Positions 11,101-34,700 of a stretch of 34,985 bases of DNA are shown here, piece by piece; the first letter of the stretch is position 1; the number at the start of each line of letters is the position of its first letter. Source of the stretch: Jimgerdemannia flammicorona. Its lineage: Eukaryota. The position numbers and the translations under genes are program-made. Location: assembly GCA_003990765.1 (NCBI GenBank), contig RBNJ01000264.1:1-34985 (forward strand). Direction: 5' to 3'. The notes below the pieces were generated by a model. It was not told the origin of the DNA, ran no database searches, and saw nothing but the letters and a program-made list of their open reading frames with translations.

Positions 11101-12380
11101 TGTGAAAGCCGGTCGCGATCGGAGATTTCTTCGGGTGATATTGTAAGGAGGTAGGTCTTGATGATGTACGAGTTGAACTTGGAGAGGTTGATGCAGGAGA
11201 TGGCGAGCTGCTGACGGAGATCGGTTTCGGCGGTGTGCGGGAACAAGAAGACATTGACAGCCTGTGGGGAAAATATGATTAGTTGTGAATTGGAGTTGGA
11301 GCATTTCATTACACGATATTTTAACAGTTCGGGGCCACCGACTTTAAACTTACCGTATTTATCGCGATTCCTAAGAAAAAGGCATAAAGGCTCTCTAGCA
11401 TCAAGGTTTGATTGAATACCCCTTCTACAGATCCCCATGAATAAAAAGCAAAAAAAAAAAACCCCGTTTAGCACATAAAGTAGTACCCAAAGCCCCCCCG
11501 CCGGTCACCTCCCACCCAACTCACGTGTCACTGCCCCATACAAGCCCTGAAATCCCATGATGCTCGGCACAAGCGAGAAAGCGAACATGCGTGGCCCGCC
11601 TCTCGCACGAACAACGCTGGTGGCGTAAATGACGATGGAGAGCAGGACGAGCATGCCGGCATTGTTGGAGCCGCTGATGACATTGATCAGCGTCCATGCC
11701 AGCACCCCGAATATACCGCCGATGATAAAAAGGAAGGCGCCGTCTAGGAAGTCTCCGACGGTGCGGCCACTAGTGTTTATTGAGGGAGGTTGAGGTAGGA
11801 AGCACCAATGGAATCAGCGAAAGTAGTTGGCTAGGGAACGCAACCGTAGGCGGCTCTCGAAAAACGATACCTACGGACTCAGGACGATGGCCGACAGCAT
11901 AACGTTCATCCACACCGTTTGATATTTGAATATGCTTGCCACCGGGTCGATCAGGATGAATAACGCCACGGTCCAGAAGGCGAGAGTACCTGCGCAGGAA
12001 TTGGTTTTTCTGTTTAGTGGGTTTGCCTGCGCGATAATCGTTCCTCACCAAGACAACAACGCACCTTTGACCGTGTTCTTAAACGCTGCGGAACTGAGAA
12101 AGGTGCCGAAATTCTTTATGAACTTTCGGAAGCCGGCCTTGGGTATTGCAGGCTCGTTGCTGGCTGGCTTGTTGCTGAACTCACTCGCTCCAGTCTGCTG
12201 CTTCTCATCTTCAGGCGGGGATGGTTGAGTTTTTTGTTGTTTCCGCTCCGCTGTGCTTACGACCGTTTCTGTTGTGTTGACCAGAATTTCCGTCGTGCCT
12301 ATCTCAAATTCCTCCGTGTCAACCACCACTGCCATGTCGGCCTTCTCGTCGGCCTTCTCGTTGGAAGTTGTGTCAGCCAT
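8159..12380 (-). CDS. FUSC/aromatic acid exporter (ArAE)-family membrane protein, Bre4/YGL140C-like, multi-exon
   Basis: ATG at 12380. N-terminal TM bundle (...FKNTVKGALLS; GRTVGDFLDG; VVRARGGPRMFAF; AVNVFLFPHTAETDLR), long cytoplasmic exon (~11262-9838), second TM bundle (YGVKCTVV...CMSPTLGQTYSSFIFQLIGNTFG...LLYPNLARRELR) and C-terminal RVYAY...LKHLFGE, stop TAA at 8159-8161. Internal exon boundaries are approximate. Confidence 0.85.
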
Positions 12381-12743: not shown

Positions 12744-13207
12744 TATAATAACAAAGTAGTTATCTATGATAAAACTATATATATGTTGATAGATTTGGAT
12801 AATCTGAGTAGACTATCAGCTCTAATCTTGTGAGAAAGTATTAAGTTCCAATACTTGTTACTGAGATATAGTCCAAGTTATCACTTTTAGATTCTTATAC
12901 TGAGTAGAGATATCATACTTATATTCTAAGTTAATTAGACTCAGAATTATTAACAAGTCAGATCTGAGGATTCTTGATAAGAATATTTCTTTATTCTTGA
13001 AAGGAGAAAGTAGAGCTAAGATTATATATAATACTCAGTATAGATAGTATTTATATAGATTAAAGTTATGACTAAATATAGTATACTGAATATATCTATA
13101 TATAGTTATACTATATTATATATATATAACTATTATATTGGTTGATAATTTTATTAGAAATTTCATTAGAATTTTCAGTACTTATAATTATATAATAAAC
13201 TATTATA
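12744..13207 (-). repeat. Putative 3' LTR of element A (~460 bp)
   Basis: Termini TATAATA...TATTATA (mutated TG...CA inverted ends), abutting a purine tract on the minus strand at 13208-13221. Minus-strand TATATAAATA near 13050 and AATAAA near 12990. No second copy in the window. Confidence 0.55.
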
Positions 13208-13248
13208 TTTTTTTCTTTTTTATCTAAACCTACTTATTCAATTCTGTA

Positions 13249-13668
13249 CTAAACTCTAGATATTTGTTCAAACTAAAGAGCTATATATTAGATTATATAA
13301 AAGGTAATATTATTCTAATATTTATTAGTTAGATTAGTAATATTTTTAGAGAATATTCTACAGAGATAATTGAGAACTTGAGATTATATGCAGAAAAGAA
13401 TATATAGTCTCTTAATAATGATATAAGTATAGTTATCAATAAAAAGACAGGATAACTATTTGGCTTTATTGAGAGAAATCTGTTGATAAATGATTTATCT
13501 TATTTTATAATATTTCTTTAGTTCTTATTGATAGCAAAAGGTTTGAAAGTATTGGATTCTTTTAAGATATTATTGGACTTCATTTAGATCAGAGCTTTCA
13601 GAAATTTATATATTAATAGAGAGTAGTTTGATAGAGATCTATTAGTATTTAATAGCTATGAGAATAAC
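13249..13668 (-). pseudogene. Degenerate accessory ORF between chromodomain and PPT of element A
   Basis: 140 codons in one frame, interrupted only by TAA/TAG, which are revertible to CAA/CAG/TGG. Includes YYKIR*IIYQQIS...DNYTYIIIKRLYILFCI*SQVLNYLCRIFSKNITNLT. Start codon is not resolvable. Confidence 0.6.
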
Positions 13669-13819
13669 TATATATATATAGTAATCTTATTCTTAGTTTA
13701 TTTATAGTATTATTATTAACTATTCATATTATAGATAAGTTATCTATATATATATAATATTTGAAAGTATTTATATTTATATATTAAGAGAATATATGGC
13801 TGCTTTTTGAAAATTTCAT

Positions 13820-14900
13820 TATACTATATATTTATATTAGATTATTACTTTTTTTTATATTTAGTAGGAGATTATCCTCTTTTTTCTAAATAGTATTATA
13901 CTTAGGATAATTTTTCTATTTTATTAGATAGTGCTGAGTGAACTTGGCAGCTTATCTAAATTATTAGTTCTTATAATCTAAGATATAATTAACTTTATAT
14001 TCTGATTATTAATTAATAATAATTAGATCTAGAAATAATATAATTTTTCTATTGAAGATATTTGAAATATATAGCTGAAGTTGAGATATATAGAATACTA
14101 GATAGATTCATTTTAGAGTTATCAGAAGTTCTAATTTATATATATATAACAGATTTATATTTCTCTAAGATCTTAAATAGTTCAATATAGTAAAGTTTAA
14201 GTTTCTTCTTTAGACTTATATTATCTAGAGTCAAATATTAAGTACTGAGTAATATCTATTTATTTTTTTTATAAGAGACTTCTCTTTTATTTTTATTAGT
14301 ATATATAGCTTATATATATTCTTTATACTTCTATGAGAATATTATATACTTGCTAGATATCATCTTATATAATATTAGCAATTTTTTATATAACTGATAC
14401 TATAGCTCAGATAATAGTTATGAGAGTCTAAGAATATTATCTATGTAGTTTAAATAAAATAGAGTTATTTTAGTACTTATACTTATATTATTATTATATA
14501 GAAACTCAGTTAAGATTAGTTTTTTGTCTCAATTATTCTACTTATAGCTATAGTAGATAAATATTTTAAGTTATACTTCTAGACCTTTAAAGAGTATCTA
14601 TCAGAAATTACTTATAATTTTGTATCTCTATTAGAGATAATTATTGATAATAATCTATAGAGATGAAATATATATACTATTTCTAAAACTATTATAAAGT
14701 AGTTATTATAGAAAAATGAGTTTACTTACCAAGATGATCTATAAAAATAATAATTACATCTCTTCTCTTTTTGGTTTTTAGTAACTAAACAATAAAGTCT
14801 ATTCAGATATAGTCTTAGTTTCAGATAAGTATTTATAGTAGCTACAGTATTCTAGCTAGAGCTTAATTACTAGATTTATATCTTTGACAGATATTATAAG
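13820..14900 (-). pseudogene. Integrase plus chromodomain of element A (inactivated)
   Basis: Motifs as listed for element A, with many stops and some frameshifts. Confidence 0.8.
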
Positions 14901-15767
14901 ATATAATATGTAGTTATATTTACTAAGATTGAAAAAATATAGTTACTTTGTAACAAAATAAAGATATTGTCCTTCTTTAGTAACTATAGTTATAAAAGAT
15001 TTATACTTATTATATATAAAATAAATCTCTTATAATTCAGATTCAAAGAGAGTTTCTTTAGATTTATATACTAATTCTCAGTTCTGGTAGAAGTTAGCTA
15101 GACTTTTGGAATTTAGTCAGAAATACTAAAGTAACTTAGGTATCATTATTAAGAACTCAGAGAAATATATATAGAGGAGAGATTTCTTATATTTGGTACT
15201 TAACTAAGAGCTAGTTTATTTCAAATATAATTGCTAAAGTATTTATATATATTGACTAGATAATAGTTTATAGATTTTAGCTAAATATATATAATTAAAT
15301 TAATATATAACTACTCTATTTATTCTGTATACAAATATATTATTTATACTCAGAATAGTTTATACTCAGAATAGTCTGTTTGCTTGAGAAATAACTAACT
15401 ATTAATTAGATAATATATAGTTAAGTAATATATTTATATAGCTTTAGTATTTAGGAGTTTTGATATATCATTTTTTATATCTTTTACTTATCTCATTTAT
15501 CACTTATTTATATACTACTTATTTATAATATTATTGTTAGATTATGTAATTACCATTTATACCTCAGAATATAATTTTATTATATTTCTCTCTTAGAAAT
15601 TAATATTTATATTAATTTCTATTTTATCTATCTTAAAGTTGAGAATTAGAGAAATGATATTATCTTTATTCTCATTATTAGCATCTGTCTAACTAGTATA
15701 TGATTTAGTAGAAGTATTAATATGTAGTATAGAAAAATCAATAAGGTCTGTAAATAGTTCTTAGTAG

Positions 15768-17315
15768 TGTCATATAGTAGTTACTGAGTTCTTCAAATAT
15801 ATCAGATTCTCTTCAAGATGTATCTCTTAGACTAACTCAAGTTTGTTATAAGTAAGTTCTTATTAAAGTATCTTCCCAAGGTCTTATAGTCCTCAAACTT
15901 CTTATCTTTAAACTGTCTTGTTATTTCTTTAGATTGCTTATATGAAATTGAGGGTAAGTGAACTGGAACTGACTTTATTTTAAAGAAAATAAGAGATATT
16001 TATATAAAATATAATTCAATAGTTGCTAAGATATAAAGCTAAATATAAATTCTAATAACTAAATTAAATACTGGAACATAGAAAACTACAGTTATCAGTA
16101 TAGAATCTAGTATTAGTATAGATAGTTGTATAAGTTCAGAGTGCTGGTAGAATTCAGTAGTATAGGAAAAGAATGCTGGAAGAATTCTGAGTCACATAAG
16201 ATCAGAATACTAGTAGAAGGATTAACTATTATATAGAAAAAGGATACTGATAGAATTTGGTATCACTAAGAACTTTAAAGCAGAATGTTCAGAACTATAG
16301 GAGCTTCATCTTCATCATCACTGAAAGAGATGAGATCTGTGAATATTTTATCTATTTTGTGATATATATCACATAGGATGACATTATCACTGGTAATATC
16401 ATTATATTTGATGAGAGCTTTCCAATCTATGACATTCTCTTCCACAAAATAAGGAACAAATGTGGGATCTTGAAAAGGTCTAACCTAGATACTGGAGTCT
16501 TGGAATACTGAGATCAATCTTTGCAAGAACTGACCTGGGTTGTCCTGGAGGATGGAATTCTAGAACTCTTCTATTTTGTTACTATTGAGAGTGATAGTAG
16601 ACTAAACCTCTGTAGCTACTATAGATTCTAGTATATTGATATGATAGGCTGATAGATCTCTGAAGTCTGAGACTTTGGTATACTTTAAGTTGGTGATCAA
16701 CTATAATATATATATATCTGAAGATCTGATGAATCTTCTTGACTATCCTTATTTCATGTATATCTATGGGAGTGGTATCTTATAGCTCTTGAGGGCTGGC
16801 TTGAGGGAATTTCTGATAGAGGAGATTTCCTATTTCATATTTTTGTCACATCTGGAGACATTCAGTAGCAATAGTAGTTCTTATTTCCATCTTGTGACAG
16901 TAGAGAATATAATGATAAAGGTCATCAGTACTCAGATTAATACTAGGAGTTCTTGTAGTGTGGGTCTTTATGGCTCTTTGGATGTCTTGGAACATTCTTT
17001 CCTAGACTGAGAGGCCTTGGTGGTTTCTTGATCTTGAGGTTTGGTGAGCAGTAGGCATTTTGTTTATAATAAGTCTTTGAGCTATTTTGGGATTAGTGGG
17101 TCTTGTTGAGTTACTGCTACTGCAGTTTCTTAATTCTTCTTTTATATTCCTCAAGATGTCTGTATTGTGATCCCAATGACTTATAGTTGATCATTATTGC
17201 TCATCTTATAGTCTGGATAAGTTATACTATATGATCTTCTTGTGCTCTGATTTGGTAGCTTGTTAGGAATTGCTATCTTTTATACTGATATTATCATTCT
17301 GAGGTCATCATTACA
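15768..17315 (-). repeat. LTR copy 1 (1548 bp) of the B/C family
   Basis: Aligns by eye with 24955-26479 and 32170-33717. Confidence 0.9.
16275..17058 (-). pseudogene. LTR-internal accessory ORF, copy 1
   Basis: ATG CCT at 17058, YEIGNLLYQ motif, TAA at 16275-16277. Length is not a multiple of 3, so at least one frameshift is present. Confidence 0.6.
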
Positions 17316-19405
17316 TCTTCCTCTTGAATAAGGATCTTCTTGAATATTCTTATTCATTGGTCCAGTTCTGAAAAATTTGCTGATCCCATAACTTCTGACA
17401 GAGGGTCAAAAAGTGATATTTATAGGCTAGTATCTTTTCTATGTATTTTGGTGTGATGGTGAAGAGTTGCTTCCTTCATATAGAGTAAGGGCCTGATTCT
17501 GATATTGACTAATCAGTTGACAGTTTGAACTTCTCTGGCTTCAAAAGTCTTACAGATAAGTAGTTGCTGATGCTGTATCTCTTAGAGAATAATCCAGACA
17601 GATTGTCTGCTGATTATAGAACATATTGTTACAATTTGCAAACTAGAACCTCATAAGTAGTTATCATATTTTGCTTCTCTTATATAGATTTATGGTACTT
17701 CTTGAGTCTGTTCCTATATACTATGGTAGATAGTATAGTCTCTGAGAGTTTTCTAAGCCAGAAGGTAGTTCTCTTGATATCTTGCACATAGAAGAGTCCT
17801 TCTCATTTGGGCTCTAGTTTTCATGACTATAAGGCTTCTACTATATTTTGATATAGTAGGACCTTTTCTCCAATTTGGATGGGTTCTAGAGTCTTATAAT
17901 TCTTTTCTATATTCTTTTTTGTTAGTGCTTATATATAACTTGATGATATAATCTTCAGCCTTCTTCCTGATTTGGTATAGTCTCCAAATTTCTGAGTCAA
18001 CCTATCTCTAAGTTAGGTCTAGATTTATGGCTAAGGTTCCATCAGAATCTTCTTCTCCAAAGAACAGTTCTCTTGAAGTAAAGTATATACTCTGTGACCA
18101 TATATCTCATAGGACAGAGAGGATAGTTAGGAGGTAGTTATCCCAATTCTCATATATATATATTTGAGATCTTTACCAGGATGTTCTTAAGGGTCTTGTT
18201 AGTTCTCTCTATCTATCCATTTTCTTGAGGGTAGTATACAGTGGTCTTGATGTGCTGAATCTTGTATTTCTGATATATTATCTTATAGAATTTATTGACA
18301 AATTCTGTGCTGCAGTCTATGGTAATTTGCTTTGGTGTCTTGTAGTAGTAGATAATTTCTCAGTACAGGAAGTTGGCTATAGAGAGAGTATTGGCTTTTT
18401 GTAATACTTCTACTTCTATCTATTTAGTAAAGAGGTCTACAATAACTATAATATAGTAGTTTTCTGATAGTGTTACTGGTAGTGGTCCAATGATATCCAT
18501 TACAGTATAGTGGAAGGAGATAGGCTCAATTCTTAATAACCTGGATATCTGGTCTTACTGATATTATTTCTATTTTTAGCACTTATCATATCCTTTGACA
18601 AATTGGTACAGATCTTCTTCTATCTTGGGCCACCACATGGTTCTTCTTGCCTTATTATATGTATTGGTTTCTCCTAGGTATCCTTGTTCATGTACTTCCT
18701 TCATTACTTAATACTTTTTATATTTAGGTATTACAAGCTTTTCTCCTTTTCTGAGTATGATGTTGTCTAGTTCAAACTATTTCCAAGTCCAGTTGATGAT
18801 GGTGATTATCTAGGATTCAAGGTGGTTAGATATCTTTCACTGCTTAAATAGCCGATTAATTCATAGTATAACTCCTTATTCATATTGAATAGTCTTGATG
18901 GGGGTGTTTTGAGGTGTCCTTAAGAGTGTATCAGCATTAGTATTAGTTCTTCCTGGGTGCTACTTGAGAGTATAGTCATACTCTTGCAGCCTATAGATCT
19001 ATCTGGCATATATTTCTTTAGAGTTCAGAGTATAGAATAGCCAGGCAAGAGTGGAATGATCTGTTTGAATAGTGAAGTATTTTCTGACTAGGTAGTAGTA
19101 GAACTTGTCTACTGCCCAAACTGCTGCTAAATATTTGAGCTTGTATAACTTATAGTTCTGTTCTATTCTATAGATATCTTAGCTTACATAAGAGATAACA
19201 TATTCATGTCTATCTTTCTTCTAAGCTAGGACTGCTCCAAGTTCTATAGTACTTACATCTGTCTGCAAGATGAACTCTAGGTTCCAATCTGATCTTCTGA
19301 GGATGGGTGCTTGGGTCAACCTGGTCTTGAGTTCATTGAAGGTTTCTTGGTATTTCTTGGTCCATTCAAATTTGGTCTCCTTCTTCAGTAGCTCATAGAG
19401 GGGTA

Positions 19406-22400
19406 TTTTGTGAGAAGTGGGAAGAGGTCTGGACATTAGTGACTAAATATCTCCTTACTAAGTGAGGTATCCCTATGAGAGATATGAGTAATAGATATTA
19501 GTACTAGGATATATAGTTAGAGAGAAACAGGACTAGGGATTAGGAATTACTAGATATGATTTAAGTCTGAGATACAATAGTACTAGAGAGAGGCAGAAAG
19601 GATGTGGGGTACCTAGAAGAAGCAAATAAGGTGGGCCTCTCAGAGGTTGGTAAGAGTGTTGGCAACTTGGGCAGATCTGGCAAATGAGGGAGTGGAGGGG
19701 GATTGGTAGCTACAGTAGACCAGGCTAGAGATAGAGAAACTGAGGGGCATTCTGAGACAGAGAGAGGATCTACAAGTTAAGAGCATGGCTGCCAGGCTAC
19801 AGTAGCAGAGATTGGAGAAGAAAGAATGGTTTACTAAGTTTTTATCATAGCTGTTGCAGGTGAGGAAAGTCTGGCAGTAGTGGGAGAGAGTTCTGGATGA
19901 GGCTGGGGAGTTGGTTGTAGGGACACTAGAGATCCTGGACCAGTTGAGCAAGCAGTGGGGACATCTGTGGAGTAAGAAGAATGGTGGAGAGGGAGTATTG
20001 GATATTGACAGATACTTAGAGGAATGGTACTCTGATCTGGTAGCAGGTTTAGAAGATCTTGATGCTGCTGTCTAGAGAAAGGAGATTCAGCAAGTTTTGT
20101 AGATAACAAGCTCTGAAACTATACCTGGAGAGGATGGTTTATAGTGGAATTTCTGTAAGAAGATGATAGGAGTTGAGCTAGCTCTGGAGAAAATAATGAT
20201 AATATGTGATGAAGTAATAGGCTCTGGAGTATAGATTGGAGGGCAGAGCTTAGGCCTTATGGCTCTACTGTTTAAGTATAAGGAGAGAAGAAAGGAGTGA
20301 AAAAACTGGAGGCTAATCATACTTCTAGATATAGATTACAAATTGGTCATGAAGGTACTGATGGCTAGGCTGCAGAGAGTGGCTCAATAGATTCTATGGG
20401 CTGAGCAGAGAGGATTTATAGGGGGTTGCCTAATTAGAGATAGGACAGTCTGAGTATATAGTATTATTGAGGATATATATACTACTAGGGTAGATGGATG
20501 ACTGGTTTTCTTAGACCAGGAGAAGGCCTATGACAGAGTCCAGCAAGTATAGTTGAAAAGGGTACTAAAGTATATTAGAGTCTCTCATGGGGTCTAGTAG
20601 GCTATAGTCAGTCTGTTGGAGGGAAGTTGGGTAGTAATTATGGTAAATAGACATAGAGAGTATTCTTTTTCTCTGAGCAAAGAAGTGCTACAGAGAGATC
20701 CACTATTACCAATACTATATGCACTGTCTTTAGAGTTACTTCTAGATAGAATATAGTATAAGGTGAGAGGGTTGGACATACTAGGGGTTAATTAAAAGGT
20801 GGGGGCTTTTGCTAATAATATAGTGGTCAGGCTTAAGTCAGTTACAAATGTTATAGTACTAAAGAGTACAGTAGAGTGATATGAGGGGTGCTCTGATACT
20901 AAGCTCAACTAGTATAAGTATGAGATCTTAGTACTGGATAGAGAAATAGTGAGTGGGAATATAATTGGAATAATTGTCTCAGTAGGAGAGACTGTTTACT
21001 ATCTAGGAATTTACTTTTCAGTATATGACTTCTTATTACTATACAAGTAATAGGAGCAGAGATTGACTGAGTGGAGAAGTACCCTCTTGGGGTAGGGTAG
21101 TTAATATATTTCTCTGGCAGGAAGGATAATAATAATGAATATATACTAACTATCTAAGCTATAGTATTTAGGATATTACTTAGACTTTCTAGTATAGATG
21201 GTCAAGTAACTTCTAAAGATAGCCAGAACCTAGATATGGGTAGAGTGATAGAGTCAGATTAGTTGAGAGATATTGACTTAGTCAGTGGATAGGAGAGGTC
21301 TAAGGCTGGTGAATTTTCTCAAGTATCTTTACTGCTTGAGAGTATGGTGGCTGAAGTGAGTGAGTAAGTTGAGGGACAGAGAGTGAGTTCTCCTCATATA
21401 GGAGATATGGGAAGTCTGATTCTCTCCCCATGATGCAACCAGAGATCTTCTGTCTTTGGTGACTTTGAAGGATAGTCAGAGGATATTATATAGGAGATTC
21501 TGATGGAGAGTAATTGTTGGGATATATTATATTGATCTCTGATAAAGGAGAAATAAGAGAGAGAAGAAATAGAGACTCCAGATATAGAGGTAGAACTAAC
21601 TTCTATTGGGTGGAGTACTAGTGAATAATTTCTACTTAGAAGATAACATAGAGTGTCTTCAGGAATACAGGAGAGACTTGTGGCCAGAGGCATGACAGAG
21701 GGTAGAGATTGGTAAGAAGTGGGACTGAAATAGTATTTAGCAATGGGGTGAACAGATAGTAAGATAAATTCCCCCCAAGTTCTGAGTAGTATAGTAGAGA
21801 GTTTTATAGTATAATATTATATTAAACTACCAGATAGACTACTTGGTAGAAGAGAGTACTTAAGAGTGTGAGAAGTGTCTAAATATTGAGTAGGAGAGAG
21901 GAGTGGTATAGACTCCTGAACATTGACTGAGAGAGTATAAGGTAATGAGAGACTTTTGAAGAGAGATTGAGGTGCAGTTAGAGGTGCACTCACTAGAACT
22001 AATAGCAGGAGGGAGGTGGGGTGATCTTTGAAGGAGGCTGGTGGGGGGGTGGGAGATGAATAGCTAACATTAGGATAAGTGCTGGTAATTAGAGTTAATA
22101 TAGTGAGTCATTGGCTTTTGGTATTTGAGAAGAGTCAACAGCTATTATTGAGGAGAAGAGTGGCTAGATAGAAGTGGCTAATACTGAATATATTAAGTGG
22201 GTAGTAGAGGGGTGAGGGTATAGATAGAAGATATCACTAGTGGCTAGAGATAATCTATACAAAGAGTGAGAGAAGGATTGGGATGGTAAAGAGATGAGTA
22301 GTATTTTGGAATAATAGTAAGAGAGAGAGGGATTTTCCAAGTAAGATTGGGTGAGGAGTACATTTGTATTAGTAGTATATTATAGATAGTTTGATAATAA

Positions 22401-22441
22401 ATTAGAAGTCTACAAGACTATAAAAAAAAAAAAAAAAAAAA
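19406..22441 (+). mobile_element. Degenerate non-LTR retrotransposon (LINE, L1/Tx1-like), 5'-truncated ORF2
   Basis: Plus-strand RT motifs PGEDGL (~20124), KNWRLIILLDIDYKL, LDQEKAYDRV (~20511), VLQRDPLLP (QGDPLSP) and AFANN (FADD, ~20805). C-terminal CEKC...TPEH...(C) knuckle near 21870-21940, AATAAA at 22396-22401 and an A20 tail at 22422-22441. Confidence 0.9.
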
Positions 22442-22900
22442 TCCAGAAATGACAGTAATCTTATTCCTAAGAAATTATAAAATAGAGCTAAGCCAGATAT
22501 CTCACACCTATAGATATTTAGAAGTGAGACTTATATTCTAGATAAAAGTAGTAATAGAGATAAATTTGAATCTAAAGTAGATAAATATATACTTCTTAAA
22601 TATGATAGAGCAGTATATAGATTATGAAATCCATAAAAGTAATATATAGTTATCTCTTATAATATTCAATTTAAGGAGACTAAAGAGTAGAAAATTTATA
22701 TAGAAATTTCTATCTTGAACAATCTAATAATATAGCCAATAATATCTATATTAACTTCAAAGATATCTTTAGTATATATATTAGTATCAGTACAACTCAT
22801 ATATATATCAATAAGGCTATTAGAGCTAAAAATTACAGAAATTATAAATAAAAATGATAATGAGGATACTTCTCTAAAAGGTAAAAAAAATATATATATA
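22442..22900 (+). mobile_element. Ty1/Copia pol fragment (post-integrase region)
   Basis: IPKKL*NRAKPDISHL*IFRSETYI...RDKFESKVDKYILLKYD...YRL*NP...VISYNIQFKE, reverting to the Copia pattern TPxExWxGxKPDISHLRVFG...K..K...C.LLGY...YRLWNP...SRNV.F.E. Right boundary is approximate. Confidence 0.8.
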
Positions 22901-23616
22901 AATCTAGGCTATATAGTGAGATTGAAATATAGAAATATATAGAAAATAGTACTATATATATATCTAGAATATACTCCAACAGAGTATATAATAACAGATT
23001 TATTAACTAAAGTTCTTTCAAAGACAAAGTTTGACTTATATATACAAAAAATGAGACTTATAGATAACTCTATACCAATGAGTAATTCTATACAAGTAAG
23101 TAGCAATTATATTTTAGTAAATAGGAACTATTTACCAGTAAGTAACAAGTAATAGTAATAATGACAATATAGCAATAATAAGAAGTTTTTCAGAGTGCTA
23201 AAAAACATCTCACTATATCTTATATATATTCATTAACATTACTTATATTTCTTTATTTATAAATAGATCTAAATTATATTGAGAGTAATCTTTCATCAAT
23301 ATTACTCAGAATTACTAATCTTTTACTATATTTTTTATCTATTTTCATACTTATAAGTAGAAAATTTTGATCTTTTTTGGTCATATAGATAGTATCTAGT
23401 TGGTCATATCTAGTTAGTATTTTATTTGTATTCTGGGATATATATATTTTATTGAACAAGAGTGTGAAAATATCTTAATTATAGCAACTCAATATATAAT
23501 AGTACAGCCTGACTATATTATTATTATAAGATATATATTATCAATATATATATAAATATATAAGCTAGTAATAAAGAATACTACTATCTCTTCTTTCTTT
23601 TAAATATTTCATAACA

Positions 23617-23848
23617 GAATTGAATTAAGGGTCATTTGAATCAAATTGAGAGTTATTTAAATTGAATTGAGAGTTATTTGAATTGAATTGAGAGTTATTT
23701 GAATCAAATTAAGGGTCTAATTTGAACTCTATTTTCAAAAAAAAAGTTTAAATTAAATCTCAAATTGAATTAGACCTTTGATTTAATTTGATTGAATTAA
23801 ATCAAATTTGAATCAAATTCAATTTAATTTGAATTATTGAGAGCACTA
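23617..23848. mobile_element. Decayed hAT/MITE-like terminus with subterminal repeats (21-bp tandem units)
   Basis: About 4 copies of ATTTGAATTGAATTGAGAGTT, then inverted copies, ending in GAGCACTA at 23841-23848. This is the CpG-decayed equivalent of TTCGAATCG arrays (compare 209-344). Confidence 0.55.
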
Positions 23849-23876
23849 TACTCAGTAAGCCATAGAAAGATAATAG

Positions 23877-24330
23877 TATTCTACTGAGCTGCAAGCTATA
23901 GAGGAATTCTTTGACAGTATTCAAAGTATTATATAGACTCATCTATTACAAATTTTATACTTTAGAGTCTACCAATATTATGCTAAGTTTCAAAAGTACT
24001 TCAAGTTGGAAAAATTACTAAATAAAAAAGACATGACTAAAGAAGAATAAATTGCAAAGTACCAGATATTTTACACTCAGATTACTATAGCTAAGTAAGT
24101 CTATAAACTATTTAAAAATAATAAGTAAGCTTTAGTCTATTTCTAAAGAGAATATAATTGAGCAGATTATATAATATAAGAATATACAATTGATCAAAAT
24201 ATAGAAGTTTAAATAAGATGATTCAGAAGTGAAATAACTTATTTAAAAAAAAGTTATAATAATTGATCTAAATTAAAAATAACAATCAAAAGATAGATAT
24301 TGATTGTAGTATCTAAATCTAATTTTTAAT
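23877..24330 (+). pseudogene. Degenerate ORF resembling the accessory ORFs of elements A/B/C
   Basis: One frame: ...QKYFKLEKLL...YTQITIAK*VYKLFKNNK*ALVYF*REYN*ADY. Stops are revertible by transitions. The host element is not identified. Confidence 0.4.
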
Positions 24331-24954
24331 ATAGTATAACATTATAGTTTAGCAGTTACTTAATCTCTCAGTTATATAATTTGTATAATTATATAAAAAG
24401 TATAGATATATAGATATATTGATCTCTCAACTATATGAAATAACTTATAGAAAAAGAAGTTTTAACTTAACTACTATATAGCTAGTAAACCTATATAAAT
24501 ATATATCTTTAGTATATATTGTAATATAGTGGACATATGTATAACTAGAGAAATGCAGCAGATTTCTATAACTCTTCTTGACTTCTCAGAGTCATAAGTA
24601 ATATTTATCTAATCTCATTATCAGACTATCAGAGTGAGGTTCAAACTTTTTAACCTAAGGTTTATTCACTTTAGATACTGAAATATTTATATAAGTTTGC
24701 TAGCTATAAAGTAGCTAAGTTATGACTATATTTCTTATGAGTCACTTTTTATAAGTATAGATTCTCTATATCTGTAAAATCTCTATATTTGTAAAGTTTC
24801 TACATTTGTGAAATAATTGTAATCATATATCTATTTCCTATTTCTATTTTATACTATATATTACATCTTTCTCCTAAATAGATTATTTTTGATGTAAAAA
24901 TACCTATTCAAATTTCTACATCTCAATATTTATATATTTGTTCTCTCTATATAG

Positions 24955-26479
24955 TATCATATAGTGATTGCTGAGTCCTTCAAATATATCAGATTCTCTT
25001 CAAAGTATATCTCTTAGACTAACTCAAGTTTATTATAAGTAAGTTCTTATTAGAGTATCTTCCTAAGATCTTATAGTTCTCAAACTTCTTATCTTTAAAC
25101 TGTCTAATTATCTCTTAGATTGCTTATGTGAAATTGAGGATAAGTAAACTTGACTGACTTTATTTTGAAGGAAATAAGAGAGGTATTTATATAAAATATA
25201 ATTCAATAATTGCTAAGATATAAAGCTAAATATAAATTCCAATAACCAAATAAAATACTGGAACATAGAAAACTACCAAGTTCTAGTATTAGTACAGATA
25301 GTTGCACAAGTTCAGGATACTGGTATAATTTTGGTGATATAGGAAAAGAGTGCTGGAATAATTCTGAGTCATATAAGGTCAGAATGCTAGTAGAGGAATA
25401 GCTATTATACAGAAAAAGAATGCTGGTATAATTTAGTATATATAACTAAGGGACTTAGAGTAAAATGTTCAAGACCATAGGAGCTTCATCCTTATTATTG
25501 CTAAAGGAGATGAGATCTGCAAACATTTCAGTCTCATTATATAGATTGCACATTTTACATATATTGCACAGGATGACATCATCACTGATGACATCATCAT
25601 ATTTGACAGTAGCAGGGAGAGTGAGGAGATCTGAGACTCTTCAGTCTATAAGGTTCTTTTCCACAAAATAGAGAATAAATATAGAGTCTTGGGGAGGTCT
25701 GATCTAAATGCTGGGATCTTAGAATGTGGAGATCAATCTTTGCAGGAATTGATCTGGGTTGTCCTGGAGAATAGGATATCAGAACTCTTCTATCTCATCA
25801 CTATTGAGGGTAATAGTAGACTGGGCTTTTGTTACCACTCTGGCTTCTAGTATATTGATATAGCAGACTAACAGATCTCTAAAGTCTGTGACTCTAGTAT
25901 ACTCTAAGTTGGGGATCAATCATAGTGCATACCTGAAGATCTGATGAATCTTCTTAGCTATCCTTATTTTATATATATCTATAGGAGTGGTATCTTGTAA
26001 CTCTTGAGGGCTGGTCTGTAGGAACTCTTGATAGAGAAGATTTTCTATTTTATACTCCTGCCACATTTGGAGGTATTCAGTAGCAATGGTAATCCTTATT
26101 TCTATTTCACAGTAGTAGAGAATATAATAATAAGAATCTCTAATATCTAGGTTGAGACTAGGAGTTCTTCTTGTGTAAGTTCTCATAGCTCTTCTGATAT
26201 CTTGAAACATCCTTTCTTCAACTGAGAGGTCTTAGTGGTTCCTTGATCTTGAGGTTTAGTAAGCAGCAGGTATTTTGTTTATAGTAAGTTTTTGAGTTAT
26301 TTTGAGATTGGTGGGTCTTATTGAGTTACTGCTACTATGGTTCCTTGATCCTTCTTTTATATTCCTCAAGATGCCTATACTATGGTCATAATGACTTACA
26401 GTTGGTCATCATTACTCATCTCATAGTCTGGGTGAGTCATACTATATGATCTTCTTGTACTCTGATCATCACTGTTACA
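24955..26479 (-). repeat. 3' LTR of element C (1525 bp)
   Basis: TATCATA...TGTTACA, adjacent to the PPT. Has a ~45-bp deletion near 26465 relative to the other two copies. Confidence 0.9.
25455..26273 (-). pseudogene. LTR-internal accessory ORF, copy 2 (273 codons)
   Basis: Start mutated to ATA at 26273. The supplied ORF 25920..26210 is part of this frame. TAA at 25455-25457. Confidence 0.7.
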
Positions 26480-26489
26480 TCTTTCTCCT

Positions 26490-29400
26490 AAATAAGAATC
26501 TTCTTAAATATCCTTATTCATTAGTCCAGTTCTGAAAAATTTACTGATCCCATAACCTCTGGCAGGAGGTTGAAAAGTGGTATTTATGGGCTGACATCTT
26601 CTCTATATATTTTGATATAATGGTGAAGGATCACTCTCTTTATATAGAGCAAGGGTCTAATTCTGATCTTGATCAATCAGTTGATGGTTCAAACTCCTCT
26701 GGCTTCGAAAGTCTTATAGATAAATAGTTGCTGGTGCCATATCTCTTAAAGAATAGTCCAGACAGATTGCCTGCTAGTTATGGAATATGCTGTTATGATT
26801 TGCAGACTAGAACCTCATGGGCAGTCATTATATTTTACTTCTCTTATATAGGTTTATGGTACTTCTTGAGTCTGTTTCTGTATACTGTGGTAGGCAGTAT
26901 AGTCTCTATAAGTTTTTTTAGCCAGAAGATAGTTCTTTTGATATCTTATACATAGAAGAGTCCTTCTCATTTAGGCTCCAGTTTTTGCAACCATGAGGCT
27001 TCTACTATATTTTAATATAGTAGGACCTTTTTTCTGATTTATATAGATTCTAGAGTCTTGTAATTCTTTTCTGCATTCTTTCTCATCAGCACTATAACTT
27101 GATGATGTAATCTTCAGCCTTCTTCCTGATTTGGTATAGTCTTTGGATTTCTGAGTCAACCTGTCTCTAAGTTAGGTCTAGATTTGTAGCTGAGGTTCCA
27201 TCAGAATCTTCTTCTCTAAAGAGCAGTTCTCTTGGAGTAAAGTGTATACTCTGTGATCATATGTCTTATAGGATAGAGAGGATAGTTGGGAGGTAGTTAT
27301 CCTAATTTTTATATGTGTCTGAGATCTTCACTAGGATGTTCTTGAGAGTCTTATTAATTCTCTCTATCTGTTCATTTCCTTGAGAGTGGTATACAGTGGT
27401 CTTGATGTGCTGAATCTTATATTTCTAATATATTATCTCATAAAATCTATTGACAAATTCTGTGCTGTAGTCTGTAGTGATTTGCTTTGGTATCTTGTAG
27501 CAGCAGATGATTTCTCAGTATAAGAAGTCAGTTATGGAGAGGACATTGGCTTCTTGTAATATTCCTGCTTCTATCTATTTGGTAAAGAGGTCTACAATAA
27601 CTATAATATAGTGATTTTCTGATAGTATTACTAGTAGTAGTCCAATGATATCCATTGTGATGTGGTGGAAGGAGATAGGCTCAATTCTTAATGACCTGGG
27701 TATCTGGTCTTGCTGATCTTATTTCTGTTTTTAGTACTTATCACACTCTTTGACAAATTAGCACAGGTTTTCTTCTATCTTGGGCCACCATATAGTTCTT
27801 CTTGCCTTATTATATATATTGATTCCTCCTAGGTATCTTTGTTCATGTACTTCCTTCATTACTTGATACTTCTTGTGTTTGGATATTACAAGCTTTTCTC
27901 TTTTTCTGAGTATAGTATTGTCTAGTTCAAACTATTTCTAAGTCTGGTTGATGATGGTGATTGTCCAGGGTTTAAGGTGGTTAGACATCTTCTACTGCCC
28001 AAGATAGCTGATTAATCTATAGTATAACTCCTTATTCATATTGAATAGCCTTAATGAGGGTATTTTAGGGTGTCCTTAAAAGTACATCAGTATTGGTATT
28101 GGTTCTTCCTGGGTGGTACTTGATAGTACAGTCATACTCTTGCAGTCTATAAATCTATCTGGTATATATTTCTTTGAGGTTCAGAGTGTAGAATAGCCAG
28201 ATAAGAGCAGAATGATCTGTTTGAATAGTGAAGTATTTCTCAGCTAGGTAGTAGTGGAACTTATCTACTGTCCAAACTACTACTAAGTATTTAAGCTTAT
28301 ATGACTTGTAGTTCTGTTCTGCTCTATAGATACCTCAGCTTATATAGGAGATGACATATTCATATTCATCTTTCTTCTGAGCTAGGACTGCTCTAAGTCC
28401 TATAGTACTTATATCTATCTACAAGATGAACTCTAGGTTCCAATCTGGTCTTCTGAGGATGAGTGCTTGGGTCAACCTGGTCTTGAGTTCATTGAAGGTT
28501 TTTTAGCATTTTTTGGTCCATTTGAATTTGGTCTCCTTCTTCAGTAGCTCATAGATAGATGCTGCAATATTGGAGTATCCTTTGATGAATCTTTTGTAGT
28601 AGGAGGTCAGTTCAAGAAAGGCATGGACTTTCATAGTTATTCTGGGTCTTAGGTAGGCTACAACAGCCTCAATCTTTGTGGATTCTGGTCTGGTTGATGA
28701 GGTATCCTAGGTAGGTAATTTCCTGAGCTACAAACTTATACTTCTTAGACTTGATGTAGAGGCCATACTTCTTGAGCTTCTTGAGGGCCAGCTATATATA
28801 GTTGATATGTTCTCATATAGTATTGCTGAAGATAATCACATCATCAATATAGACAAAGAGCCATTTTTCAATTTCATTACTGAAGACTCTGTTCATCATT
28901 CGCTGAAAACTTGCTAAGGCATTATACATTCCAAATGGCATTTGCAGATAGATATAGGTAGTATTAGATATAATGAAGGCTGATTTCTCACTGGCATCTT
29001 GAGTGAGACCAATCTGATAAAAGTCTGAGAACAGATCCAAGGTGGTGTAGTATTTGGCTTTACTTCCAAGAGTGGTAAGAATTTCTTGAATATTAGGTAA
29101 GGGCTGTCTATTCTTCTTGGTGATTGTATTGAGCTTTCTGTAGTCAATATAGAGTCTTGGGGCAAACTCTCCAGGCTTGTTTCCTTTCTTTGGAGCAAGG
29201 ACAATGGGTGAAGCCCAGAGACTGATAGCTTGCTTGATGATTCCAGCTTCTTTTATTTCCTTGAGTTCTGCTTGCAGCTATTCTCTATAGACAAGTGGTA
29301 TAGGTCTGGTTTTCTGATAGATGGGCTTGATATTACTGGTGTCAACTTCATTGTAGTACTTGGGTTCTTAATTGTAGATATCTCTGAAGTCTGTAGCAAG

Positions 29401-32100
29401 TACTTCTTCATTCTGGTATAGAATCTTAAGAAGTTGTTCTTCCAGGAGAAAGTTTTTTCCAATGGTATATGTGTGCTTATTCTGATTCTTGTCTTTCTTG
29501 TACTCAAGTTTGGTAATCTTGGTGGTAGCATAGGCTCCTCTTCCAGTAGATCCAAAGCCTTGTTCTCCTCTCTTGGTCTTAATGAGTTTAATGGCTTCAG
29601 TAATCTTGGGCTTCTTGATTTCATGGATCAGCATCTGGTCAATCCTGTCATACTTCTTGACTTCAAATGGGGTGGTGGGGTTGTGATTCCTGACTATGAG
29701 GAAGATCTCATCAGTATAATCAGATTCAATTACTCCTCCTTTAGCTGAGATTTTGCTTTTGGCCAGACTGCTCCTATCTTAATAATTCCAGTATAGATCT
29801 CTGGCAACTTGACTCCAATTTCAGTACCAAGTAGAGTGGTAGTCTGTAGTTCAAGGATAACATCTTAAATGCTAGCAAGGTCCATTTCTATGACTCCTTC
29901 AGTCTTATATTCTAGGATCTTAGCTTCAGGATAAAACTTCTTAACCTTGAGAGTGATGTCTAGTTCTTGTTCCTCCTCATCATCACTGTTAGCTTGAAGC
30001 TCTGGGGGCTGGTCATCTTCTTTGGCTTTCCTTTTTGCTTTAGCAGCTTCTTGCTTATACTTCTATTGGCAGATTTTCCTGACTTCACTGATATAGGACC
30101 AGCAGTCATTCAGGTGTTCAGAGTAGTATCCTAGTACCATGGGGGCATCTTTCTTGAGGAGTATAGCCATTGATGATCTTATTGTACCACTGCTCATCTG
30201 TGAGCTTGGGTGTCTTATTCTTGTTTTTATTCACCAAGTACATGAAGACTTCTGTGTTCTCTTCATCTCCTTTCTTCATATCTAGTAGAACTTCTTTGTG
30301 GACATTGATAGAGACTTGTACCTTTCTTCCTCTATAATTAATCTACATCTTCTGAAAATTGAGGTCAATGATGGTCTTGGCCTTATGAAGCCATTAGTTA
30401 CTGGTGAGGATGTCATAGTTAGTGGTACTTGTAATAATCACATCTACTGGAATGGTAGCTCCTCTTATCTTGATGAAGACTTCTTGGATTTTACTAAGGG
30501 GAGTAGCTTGTGTACCATCTGCTGTAATATAGACCATCTTGGTAGACTCTTCAATGTCTCAACCTAGGCAGTCAATTGCCTTCTTGCTTATGAGGCATCC
30601 TCCAGCACTAGTATCAATGATGACATCAAAGATACAATCTTCAATCTGATATAGAGTATAGGCTGATGTTTTGCACTGGTCTTCAGGTTTTTCACCTGAG
30701 TCTTCTTGATTATCTTTTTGTATATTGTGAGCTTCTATAATCTTATAATCTTGATTCTTGGCAGTAGTTGCAAGTCTTACTCTCAACTGTTATCTAAAGA
30801 TAGGGACTTTGGCTAGTTATCCAAAAGTAGCATTGACCTTCTGTTCCTTGAGGTCCTTATAGATATCATACTGGTAGATCTTAGTCTTGTACAACTTCTA
30901 TTCCTTCTTGCTTTTACTTTCTTCTAAGACTAGAGTAGTACCTTCAATAATTTGACAGGCAGCTTTATCTAACTCTATATCTTGATCAATCTCCTTAAGT
31001 TGGGTCTTACTTTAGATAGTGATAGCTGGAGTCTTCTTCAGTCTTCCAACTGGCTTACTGTTGTTCTTCTTGTCATAGAACTTGGACTGGGTTCTGGTAC
31101 CTTCAGTAGTAGAGTAGAATTTAAGCTCTTTATAGTATTCTTCATCATCAGTATCATCAATCTCCTTGATAACTACTATATTAGTTTGTTCTTTGGTTCT
31201 GGTAGTATTACTTAGTTGGACTTTACATCTTATTTTAGTTATATAACTCTTTGTATAGTAGCCTTCTTCTTCATATATAAAGTATGTAATATTGCTTTCT
31301 TCTATAGCAGCTGCAAATCTCTATACTGGTCTTCTGTTGGTACTTCAGACTTCTCTAACAATATCACTAAGGTATGCAGTCATCTTAGCAAACTATGTAC
31401 TTGGTGAGTTCCTCCACTAGGTTAGCTTTGGCTGCCTTGGGGATAAGTGGGAATATTTGTCTGTTTACAACTATAGTAGGTATGATACTAGTTGGCTTTG
31501 ATGGCTCCATCTTGATGCTAGTTATTTTCTCTATTGAGTGTTTGGCAGAATATCAGACAGTCCAATATCTCTATGCAAAGACCACTTTCTGATCAAGAGT
31601 CAGTGCAGCTAGGGTAGATTAGATTGCTAGAGCAATTTCAGAGTAAACTCCTTTAAAGAAGGTTGAATCTGCTATTTGTTTCTTGAGGTGGTCATCATAG
31701 TCAGCCAAGATAATCTGGTGGCAGATTTAGGTATAGAATGAGTTGGGATCTTCACTAAGTTCCTGGCAGATAGTGTTGAGTTGATCCTTGAGAGCTTGCT
31801 TGATTACTTCAGTATAATATATAGTTCTAATGAAGGTCTTCATGTTGACAAGTCTGGCTACACTAGCATCACAATGATGACTATATTGAACTTATCTCTA
31901 GCAGGTCCTCTGAGGCTGACTGATAGAAGGGCCAATTGTACATCTACATTGAGGGCTTGTATAGTGGCAAATTGTTCAAAGTTTTCAATAAAGGTCAGGA
32001 TTGACTCTTCAGTAGTATATCCATAGAATGTAGGGGGATGTATTTCTATCTTATCTTGAATTCTTATAAGAGTAACTCTTGTAGTCAGAGTAGTTGTTAT
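26490..32100 (-). pseudogene. gag-pol polyprotein of element C (many stops, a few frameshifts)
   Basis: Approximate domain order: gag 32100-30800, PR 30680-30300, dUTPase 29957-29542, RT 29400-28500, RNase H 28480-28060, IN 27900-26850. Confidence 0.88.
29542..29957 (-). pseudogene. Trimeric-type dUTPase domain within pol
   Basis: All five motifs are recognisable: (AG)MDL, RSSLA, GVIESDYT(G)EI, DRI(A)Q and RGEQGFGSTG. One 1-nt frameshift near 29778. Confidence 0.9.
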
Positions 32101-32373
32101 GGTGGTTGTTCATTTTTTAGTTTAAAAGTAAGGAATTCATCTTGAATTACCAATCAATGGATACCAAGTTATTACATAGTAGTCACTAAGTTCTTCAAAT
32201 ATGTCAGATTCTCTTCAAAGTATATCTCTTAGACTAACTCAAGTTTGTTATAAGTAAGTTCTTATTAGAGTATCTTCCCAAGGTCTTATAGTCCTCAAAC
32301 TTCTTATCTTTAAACTGTCTTATTATCTCTTAGATTTCTTATAAGGAATTGAGAGTAAGTAAACTTAACTGAC

Positions 32374-32408
32374 TTTATTTTGAAGGAAATAAGAGAGGTA
32401 TTTATATA
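32374..32408 (-). promoter_or_regulatory. LTR core promoter / poly(A) signal (TATATAAATA at 32408-32399, AATAAA at 32379-32374)
   Basis: Motifs are conserved in all three LTR copies, ~210-240 bp from the LTR 3' end. This places the LTR ORF in U3. Confidence 0.55.
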
Positions 32409-32663
32409 AAATATAATTCAATGATTGCTAAGATATAAAGCTAAATATAAATTTCAATAACCAAATAAAATACTGAAATATAGAAAACTGTTAAGTTCCA
32501 GTATTGACACAGATGGTTGTATAGGTTCAGAATACTGGTATAATTTCAGTAATACAGAAAAAGAGTGCTAATAATTCTGAGTCACATAAGGTCAGAATGC
32601 CAGTAGAGGAATAGCTGTTATATAGGAAAAGAATGCTGGCATAATTCAGTATAACTAAGAAAC

Positions 32664-33461
32664 TTAGTGCAGAATATTCAGAACCATGAGAGCTTTATCT
32701 TCATTAGAGGTCAGAATGTCTTTGAAGGAGATAAGATCAGTTTTGTCATATATTTTACATATGTCACATAAGATGATATTATTGCTGATGATGTTATCAT
32801 ATTTAGTAGTGGGGAAATCAGAGGCTCTCCAATCTATAAAGTTCTCTTCTACAAAATAGAGAACAAATATGAGATCTTAGAGAGGTCTGACCTAGATACT
32901 GAGGTCTTGGAATATGAAGATCAATCCTTATAGAAATTGATCTGAGTTGTTCTGGAGGATGAGATATCAGAACTCTTCTACCTCATCACTATCAAGAGTA
33001 ATAGTGGACTGGGCTTCTGTTGCCACTCTGGCTTCTAGTACATTAATATGATAGACTGACAGATCTCTGAAGTTTATGACTCTAGTATACTCTAAGTTGG
33101 AGATTAATCATAATATATGCCTGAAGATCTGATAAATCTTCTTAGCTGTCCTTATTTCATATATATTCATAGAAGTAGTATCTTGTAACTCTTAAGGACT
33201 GGTCTGTGAGAACTCCCAGTAGAGAAGGTTTCTTATTTCATACTTCTGCTATATTTGGAGATATTTAATAGCAATAGTGATCCTTGGTTCCATTTCATAA
33301 CAGTAGAGGATAAAGTGATAAGGATCTCTAGTACCCAGGTTGAGATTAGGAGTCCTTCTTATACAGGTCCTCATGGCTCTTCTAATATCTTAGAACATCC
33401 TTTCTTTGACTGAGATACCTTAGTAGTTTCTTAACCTTGAGGTTTGGCAAGCAGCAGGCAT
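32664..33461 (-). pseudogene. LTR-internal accessory ORF, copy 3 (266 codons, no frameshift)
   Basis: Runs ATG CCT GCT GCT to ...AAT ATT CTG CAC TAA over 798 nt. Every internal stop is TAA/TAG/TGA, revertible by a single transition, and most are sense codons in another copy. TATAAAAG lies upstream at 33549-33542. Confidence 0.75.
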
Positions 33462-33721
33462 TTCATTTGTAGTAAGTCTTTGAGCTATCTTGGAATTAGT
33501 GGGTCTTGTTGAGTTGCTGCTACTGTGGTTCCTTGATCCTTCTTTTATATTTCTCAAGATACCTATACTGTGGTCACAATGACTCATAGTTGATTATTAT
33601 TACTTATCTATAGTCTGGATAAGTCATACCATATAATCTTCTTGTGCTCTGATCTGGTGACTTATAAGAAATTACTATCTCTTATGCTGATGTCATTATT
33701 CTGAGGTCACTATTACAACAG

Positions 33722-33911
33722 ATAGAGTAGAGAGAGAATTGGGATAGCTGGAAGAATAGTAGTATTCTAGAGAAATAGAGAGAAGAAGAGAAGAGACCTC
33801 TCAGAAGATTGAGTGAGGGGAGTCTATATTGATATAATATAAATTGGTAATCAGATAATAAAGTGGAAGTCTAAGTAACTATAAAAAAAAAAATAATAAT
33901 AATAAAAAAAA
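33722..33911 (+). mobile_element. Short 3' fragment of a LINE related to 19406-22441, with a degenerate A tail
   Basis: GATAATAAAGTGGAAGTCTAAGTAACTATAAAAAAA versus GATAATAAATTAGAAGTCTACAAGACTATAAAAAAA at 22393-22441. Upstream ATTGGGAT...AGTAGTATT also match. Confidence 0.75.
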
Positions 33912-34700
33912 AGAGATCTACTTTAATATATACTAATAAAAAGATAATTAAGAAATTATAAGATTTTAGAGACTGAATGAGATAGTTGAAAGACTGAAGT
34001 CTAGAGGTTAGTGAGTTTATTAGTATTATTTTATAAAGTAATATATTTGACAAGACTATATTTTATAGTAGTCTAAAATACTATAAATATTAGAATAATT
34101 ATTCATAATTATAAGAATAAATTTGAAATCTTTAATTCTGCCAAAATGTAAATAGATATAATAATTATCAGCACAATATAGAATATTACAAATTGAGTGA
34201 AAATTATTAAAAAATATACTTAAATAAATAAATAAATAAATAAATAAGATATTAAATCAATTATTAAAAAGAAGTCTTATATATATAAATCTACAACTAT
34301 TTTATTTTGAGTACATATAAGTCTATTTATTTGAATATATTTGAATATATATAAGTTATAAGCTAAAGCTATTAAAGTTGAATTTCTAAAAAAAATCTTA
34401 GTTCAAACTATATAAAATAAATCAAATTAAATTTTACTTTGTTTAATATAATAATAATAATAATATATTAAATATTTTAATTTTAATTTTTATATTAAAT
34501 AATTATTATAAATTTTATACAATATTATAAAATATATTATTTCCATTTTAGAAATTATAACTAATAGCCAAAATTTAACTCAACTTTATAAAAAATTCCT
34601 CTGAATTTATAACATTATTAAATAAATAAGTAAATATTTCTATAAAACCCATTTTTTATTTTTTATTTTTTATTTTTTTTATGGTGTTCTATACTTTTTA
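33912..34700. other. Extremely AT-rich, CpG-free, unassigned decayed repeat sequence, including (TAAA)n near 34221-34246
   Basis: Composition matches the mutated TE block and no diagnostic motif was recognised. CpG reappears at ~34763. Confidence 0.4.

Follow-up and report, generated by a model that had tools for sequence, protein, structure and literature searches.

The window analysed here is a stretch of 34,985 nucleotides from the fungus Jimgerdemannia flammicorona (NCBI GenBank assembly GCA_003990765.1, contig RBNJ01000264.1, positions 1 to 34,985 of the forward strand), in which three copies of a ~1.5-kb long terminal repeat (LTR) carry the remains of the same gene on the minus strand. 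The frame is a real, once protein-constrained gene of which all three window copies are pseudogenes, and the gene is still intact in relatives from environmental data. Its host is a minus-strand Ty3/gypsy retrotransposon of the fungus, and what killed all three copies is C>T and G>A hypermutation resembling repeat-induced point mutation (RIP). We consider it probable, at roughly 0.8, that a fungal Ty3/gypsy LTR here carries a sense accessory gene of ~265-272 codons, an orphan that was constrained in its ancestors and is now dead in this window through RIP-like hypermutation. By position and sense this is an LTR-embedded accessory gene, like sag of mouse mammary tumor virus (MMTV), and it is of interest to transposon specialists.

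The frame and the element that carries it

Read in the same direction as pol, the frame sits entirely within the LTR, and it is found in both LTRs of a full-length element and likewise in the LTR of a second element. Its three copies end at a TAA in one common alignment column and are as follows:

33461 to 32664, minus strand: frame of LTR copy 3, 265 codons and a TAA, with 9 internal stops
26273 to 25455, minus strand: frame of LTR copy 2, 272 codons and a TAA, with ATA as start and 7 internal stops
17058 to 16275, minus strand: frame of LTR copy 1, ~261 codons, with an intact ATG, 7 internal stops and a frameshift caused by 4 nt inserted near 16713-16717

The start reads ATG CCT at 33461 and 17058 and ATA CCT at 26273. 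The original prediction, made from the letters of the window, had described a full protein-coding gene at 32664..33549, with a start ~80 bp past TATAAAAG, a frame of 261-273 codons running to a shared TAA, and TATA/AATAAA signals past the frame. The distance was found to be 88 nt in all three copies, the lengths and the common stop are those listed above, and the later signals were recovered as TATATAAATA and AATAAAG downstream of the stop. A gene-like frame does occupy the interval; its strand, which had been left unstated, is the minus one, and none of the three copies is the full gene that had been announced. In fact, an ATG-to-stop search returned no open reading frame (ORF) of at least 60 aa in the region, and the plus strand of the same interval is full of stops.

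With the terminal stop included, the frame holds 8 stops in copy 2 and 10 in copy 3, as against 16-26 in the other two sense frames. When columns with C/T and G/A differences are read as C and G, 2 internal stops remain in the frame versus 9-17 in the other five frames, and one of these 2 is an artefact of a three-way column where copies 2 and 3 have E and K. The indels that separate the copies inside the frame measure 24, 15, 12, 9 and 4 nt, four of the five being multiples of three, whereas elsewhere in the LTR this holds for one of ten (51 nt; Fisher p = 0.017 against the frame); these events were counted by reading a MAFFT alignment whose C-terminal part is uncertain. Likewise, transitions between copies peak at third codon positions, with 63-77 as compared with 32-37 at second positions.

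The ~1.5-kb repeat occurs three times in the window, and in self-BLAST comparisons the identity of copy 3 is 82.2% with copy 2 and 79.0% with copy 1. The order of the pol domains on the minus strand, protease (PR), dUTPase, reverse transcriptase (RT), RNase H and integrase (INT), is that of Ty3/gypsy elements (Metaviridae), and together with the flanking direct repeats it identifies a minus-strand Ty3/gypsy element in which copy 3 is the 5' LTR and copy 2 the 3' LTR. The components of this element and of the second one are:

32170..33717, minus strand: copy 3, 5' LTR of the full-length element, starting with TGTAAT and ending with GTAATA (from self-BLAST, alignment and termini)
26480..32169, minus strand: internal region of the full-length element, with protease, dUTPase, RT, RNase H and integrase, decayed and spread over three frames
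24955..26479, minus strand: copy 2, 3' LTR of the full-length element, with the purine tract AGGAGAAAGA just before it
15768..17315, minus strand: copy 1, 3' LTR of the second, truncated element, with TG...CA kept and the purine tract AAGAGGAAGA just before it
17316..19399, minus strand: internal 3' part of the second element, integrase side, with RNase H at 19221-19442, cut off near 19400
32150..32167, minus strand: candidate primer-binding site TTGGTATCCATTGATTGG, 2 nt past the 5' LTR, containing TGG, proposed from the sequence

Read-through frames of the internal region gave Pfam matches to RVP_2 (E = 5.5e-6), dUTPase (2.6e-13), RVT_1 (1.5e-26), RT_RNaseH_2 (1.2e-24), Integrase_H2C2 (1.2e-6) and rve (9.1e-5). 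The second element forms direct repeats with 26475-28303, its segment 19150-19399 is 90% identical to 28306-28555, and its RNase H matches RT_RNaseH_2 with E = 7e-12. All three LTRs start with TGTAA and end in CA (copy 1) or TA (copies 2 and 3), and the purine tracts abut both 3' LTRs. Around the full element no target-site duplication is recognisable, the flanks TCTGT and CTATA being mismatched even when transitions are allowed, and no chromodomain was matched at E <= 0.01 in the read-through frames of a region so heavily mutated that such an absence is uninformative. The dUTPase domain lies between protease and RT at 29368-29778 on the minus strand (E = 8e-15 and 2.6e-13).

The mode of decay is visible in the 1476 gap-free columns of the LTR alignment, of which 352 are transitions, 47 transversions and 8 three-way. 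An A comes after 101 of 203 mutated C residues as compared with 41 of 153 invariant ones, and a T comes before 82 of 148 mutated G residues as compared with 21 of 130 invariant ones. The TA/AT index is 0.97-1.03 in the LTRs versus 0.66 in the genic part of the window, and a RIP threshold of 0.89 for this index is quoted in PMC8365987. CpG is absent from the repeat DNA that makes up 13000-34700, as counted in all three LTRs and in each of the ten 500-nt bins of 19001-24000, a total loss which would also fit methylation-driven deamination. Both CpA and CpG are therefore targets of the decay, as they would be if RIP acted together with methylation-driven deamination.

Intact relatives and the predicted product

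With a query profile built from four read-through pieces of the decayed copies, in which stops were written as X, 6 proteins were retrieved from a set of 5.8 billion (E from 2e-110 to 7e-35) and 4 representatives from 1.84 billion proteins (E from 8e-107 to 6e-28); a wider profile raised the relatives to 9. The original prediction had proposed a search for intact copies, and these do exist in public data, with P0005 at 271 aa, P0006 and P0011 at 247 aa and P0014 at 342 aa (P0011 and P0014 on contigs of 2375 bp and 4848 bp), the other members of the family being shorter pieces on contigs of 600-1200 bp. Relative to P0005, the distant members P0013 and P0014 show 47% identity over 72% and 37% identity over 99%, respectively. 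The blocks EIWHEYEI, AKK[IV]HQVFRHAP and WNP[IL]LxDxPDQWLQ are common to the three, and P0014 additionally keeps DLIxFS and MVLNF. The consensus drawn up earlier from the window copies agrees with P0005 over most blocks, the part that failed being LCDxCK, which occurs in no intact relative and may partly be a mutational product.

The relatives also account for the state of the window copies. Each of the 23 window stops falls opposite Q, W or R in the intact proteins, one C>T or G>A step away. Where at least 75% of relatives have Arg, this residue is kept in 36 of 60 window cells and replaced by C, Y or H in 16, which is the product expected from the loss of CpG.

An independent view of the LTR comes from one public soil DNA run which carries part of it (share 0.07) and which, at 80% likeness, contributes 789 short contigs covering all 30 bins. 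The soil differs from the window by A>G 61, T>C 34, G>A 29, C>T 15 and transversions 17; these differences are mostly A>G and T>C, and thus the window copy is the more A/T-shifted. Codons were compared at the 40 best-supported of the 156 differences, of which 32 fall in the ORF; these 32 affect 31 codons, 16 changing toward the residues of the relatives, 1 away from them and 3 neither, while 11 are synonymous. The soil majority letters restore two of the stops of copy 3 (codon 90, TAA>CAA, and codon 118, TGA>TGG), its other 7 stops lying outside the 40 best-supported differences, and depth is low at 32483-32846, where thin cover counts as no evidence. Because the soil differences mostly undo RIP in copy 3, their codon position was not used as a test of constraint.

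Judged from sequence searches, the gene appears to be an orphan family without known domain. Pfam returned no family for the window copies at E <= 1, except a chance-level Pol_alpha_B_N (0.084), and nothing for any of the 9 relatives at E <= 0.1, except ATG5_HBR at 0.088 in 2 of them; neither the window copies nor the relatives match the MMTV superantigen family of Pfam. No relative was found by sequence search of the PDB, in a collection of viral genomes or, by pattern scan, in a collection of prokaryote genomes, the last being irrelevant to fungal hosts. The best ESM Atlas features, 0.83 for P0005 and 0.85 for P0014, are in the range of shuffled proteins, and structural TM (template modeling) scores are at most 0.33. 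The proteins are strongly acidic, with net charges of -20, -21 and -27, and their C-terminal 60-90 residues form an acidic tail with DLIxF and LNF[LT] motifs, a feature which had been proposed from the window copies and is indeed common to the relatives. As a best guess, the product would be a non-enzymatic regulator or adaptor for the element, for instance activating the LTR or countering host silencing. The layout allows the role of nuclear transactivator that had been proposed from the letters without demonstrating it, and on the strength of charge and motifs such a regulator or adaptor role may be entertained as a loose possibility.

A scan of metagenome contigs yielded one locus, L001 (NFYX01008856.1, 35809-48834), which was rejected as a chance pattern match, with 30% identity over 78 residues. 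This locus has 25-32% GC and encodes the crAss-like phage proteins crAss_MUZ_C, ART-PolyVal and DUF192; it also shows many in-frame stops under the standard code, which suggests that a stop codon is reassigned in it.

Expression signals and rival explanations

The putative signals around the frame are the following:

33549 to 33542 (copy 3), 26361 to 26354 (copy 2) and 17146 to 17139 (copy 1), minus strand: TATAAAAG, 88 nt upstream of the ORF start, putative promoter
32399..32408, minus strand: second TATA, TATATAAATA, downstream of the frame stop, putative promoter of the genomic RNA
32373..32379, minus strand: AATAAAG, the lone AATAAA common to all three copies, putative poly(A) signal

TATAAA is common to all copies at two sites only, one 88 nt ahead of the ATG and the other 29 nt ahead of the common AATAAA, positions which suit the model below, and in copy 1 no ATG lies between the first TATA and the start codon. 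Copy 1 also has a second TATAAAAG at 17277-17284, near the 5' end of the LTR, in a 51-nt stretch which is present in copies 1 and 3 and corresponds to a gap in copy 2 after ~26468. We hypothesize that in live copies the upstream TATAAAAG box would start transcription 88 nt before the ATG and that the transcript would end at the single AATAAAG of the LTR, ~300 nt past the stop, which would give an mRNA of ~1.2 kb contained in one LTR; both LTRs of an element, and solo LTRs, could then express the gene. This model is put forward tentatively, at slightly less than even odds, and what points to a placement of the gene in U3 (the unique 3' part of the LTR) is the downstream TATA/AATAAA pair only. 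The further idea that such a self-contained gene, with its own TATA, ORF and shared poly(A) signal, would let each LTR, solo ones too, supply a trans-acting factor to the whole family is doubtful.

Another arrangement of the same signals would place the ORF in R/U5 (the repeat and unique 5' parts of the LTR), with TATAAAAG as the promoter of the genomic RNA, the ORF as its first cistron and an R of ~1.2 kb, short LTR-only mRNAs arising when the poly(A) signal of the 5' LTR is used. This would agree with TATAAAAG being one of just two common TATAAA sites and with the lone common AATAAA coming after the ORF, and the sequence is silent on which TATA drives the genomic RNA. LTR elements typically have a short R-U5, however, and the second TATA, 29 nt before AATAAAG and ~240 nt before the LTR end, would give exactly this usual layout, next to which an R of 1.2 kb would be exceptional; we regard this arrangement as unlikely. 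Expression from spliced or read-through RNA is a further alternative. Still less likely is that the ORF is a captured host gene or passenger of no service to the element, as might be argued from its orphan status without a link to retroelement protein families, from its being the most variable part of the LTR, and from intact relatives that are known as proteins. Against this, the frame stays open in relatives at 37-47% identity and differs between copies by in-frame indels, and a search of proteins of 600-2000 aa gave no cellular form that is longer or fused, which is weak evidence.

The nature of the repeat itself might be questioned, given that no target-site duplication is recognisable and the primer-binding site is a candidate, so that the 1.5-kb unit would be no LTR and the ORF an ordinary internal gene of a tandemly arranged element. 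The direct repeats, however, flank a complete PR-dUTPase-RT-RNaseH-INT region, both 3' copies start with TG right after a purine tract and copy 1 ends in CA, which makes this explanation highly improbable. Least credible of all is a chance frame in AT-rich repeat DNA. It would be in keeping with the absence of an open copy in the window and with the poor predicted structure, and it is already contradicted by the intact relatives and the alignment of the stops: intact ORFs of 247-342 codons stand in independent records with E down to 1e-110, all 23 stops are explained by single transitions, and the other five frames keep 9-17 stops after the same C/G reading.

An accessory gene of the LTR, once constrained and now dead, remains our preferred reading, and several observations weigh against it. 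The second of the stops that persist after the C/G reading, TAG at codon 190, is common to all three copies (the relatives have Q there in 6 cases and R in 2). Transversions show no third-position excess (9, 7 and 6 at positions 1, 2 and 3 between copies 2 and 3), and the excess of transitions at third positions could partly reflect the placement of CpA, TpG and CpG in codons. At the DNA level no part of the LTR is less conserved than the ORF, which is 63-82% identical between copies (76-82% over the first two thirds and 63-73% over the remainder), as compared with 81-88% in the flanks and 91-92% at the LTR 3' end. The family is tiny, 9 clusters among 5.8 billion proteins, and its intact members are known here as proteins, for which a placement in an LTR would be an extrapolation from the window copies. 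The sequencing-run search listed no RNA run with the LTR family, which says nothing on expression, and TATAAA occurs at the rate expected by chance for this composition (2 observed, 2.5 expected). The basic N-terminus that had been proposed holds for close relatives (charge +8 over residues 1-60 of P0005, of an Arg-rich subgroup) and is nearly absent in distant ones (+2 in P0013 and +1 in P0014). AlphaFold2, run on a 9-sequence alignment, predicted helices at 18-31, 54-83, 89-95, 100-115, 136-149 and 173-185, in a low-confidence model with a mean pLDDT (predicted local distance difference test) of 40.5 and a pTM (predicted template modeling score) of 0.29, where only residues 61-110 reach 56-65, and it gave no confident fold or family; the ESM Atlas model scored 0.35.

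Known elements and the rest of the window

By position the nearest known case is MMTV sag, where, as here, a complete sense ORF of a few hundred codons is found in an unusually long LTR of more than 1 kb and is present in both LTRs. MMTV sag encodes a type II membrane glycoprotein; the present frame differs in matching no Pfam family, retroviral ones included, in having a fungal host and a Ty3/gypsy element without env, and in a predicted acidic product with no sign of a membrane protein. The nef genes of human and simian immunodeficiency viruses (HIV/SIV) and bel/bet of foamy viruses, the latter with an internal promoter, are non-structural regulators at or in U3 which are expressed apart from gag-pol. 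Their overlap with the LTR is partial, and they are expressed from spliced RNAs or from an internal promoter, whereas here the LTR contains the whole ORF together with its putative TATA and poly(A) signals; the Pfam and PDB searches gave no sequence relation to them.

In the accessible literature, nearly all matches for ORFs in LTRs concern MMTV sag. An extra gene that is neither gag nor pol is, on the other hand, a trait shared with other LTR elements, namely the plant aORFs, the bdelloid ORF3s and brtn of Botrytis BcGypsy1/Boty. Extra ORFs are known in LTR elements of plants (PMC7264820), rotifers (PMC5408684) and fungi, where brtn is described for BcGypsy1/Boty (PMC8365987) and an 'add. ORF' appears in a figure legend (PMC2864245). 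The title of Zhao et al. 2011, as cited in PMC8365987, describes brtn as antisense, the distinction between brtn and the present gene being one of description. None of the extra ORFs described for LTR elements is placed inside the LTR in the accessible literature, and the phrases 'in the LTR', 'within the LTR' and 'inside the LTR' are absent from the plant review (PMC7264820). Likewise, the literature search, which covered papers outside subscription and not their PDF supplements, turned up no fungal retrotransposon described as having a gene embedded in its LTR.

The host element resembles the dUTPase-bearing Ty3/gypsy elements of fungi, in which dUTPase lies between PR and RT, as in PosPlaTy3-5 of Postia placenta, Tmt1 of Tuber and elements of Phanerochaete; the comparison is by description and not by sequence, and no LTR ORF is mentioned for them in the accessible part of the source (PMC2864245). 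Another likeness is with crapaud of Podospora, an element of a RIP-affected genome whose LTR subfamilies differ in the 5' half (the U3 part) and keep a conserved 3' part (PMC10787394), as is the case here for the variable part with the ORF and the conserved 3' end. In a figure legend of that paper, crapaud is drawn with gag and pol only, and with none in the LTR (PMC10787394). Two candidates were set aside, BcGypsy3 as the element itself for its LTR of 258 bp (PMC8365987) and a Talaromyces 'LTR ORF' which denotes polyprotein ORFs and not an LTR-embedded gene; neither ORFs in LTRs nor dUTPase are covered in a truffle paper.

The usual view of fungal LTR retrotransposons is of gag-pol machines whose LTRs serve regulation only, and a conserved gene housed entirely in the LTR would change it. 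If the reading is true, solo LTRs, far more numerous than full elements in many genomes, could code for protein, a check for genes would have to precede the masking of long LTRs, and a new orphan protein family tied to retroelement biology would be open to direct tests. In the doubtful case of a self-contained gene that serves the whole family, it would parallel, in a fungus, the accessory genes of complex retroviruses, perhaps as a transactivator or as a counter to genome defence by RIP, premeiotic methylation or silencing. In RIP-affected genomes, genes of this kind are invisible to ORF finders, and the present one was recovered only through stop read-through and a profile of decayed copies.

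As for the remainder of the window, the block that truncates the second element (19400-22500) is C-poor on the plus strand, with ~50 C against 125-176 G per 500 nt and a GC skew of 0.35-0.42, and its longer stop-to-stop frames are without Pfam match; within it, 22263-22442 resembles 33724-33903, in the flank of the full element, at 69%. The segments 13000-16000, 23000-25000 and 33800-34700 have ~20% GC, a TA/AT index of 1.1-1.2 and simple AT-rich repeats, and are probably older repeats that have decayed past recognition. An inverted repeat pairs 24398-24502 with 24683-24790 (73%). Ordinary genic DNA of ~50% GC fills the left 12 kb of the window. It contains, all on the minus strand, a BRE4-like domain (8564-9229, E = 7e-6), which together with the RIP-like decay fits a fungal host, a fragment of an FAD-dependent oxidoreductase (1923-2432, E = 1e-5) and a 558-codon open frame without Pfam match (9828-11504).

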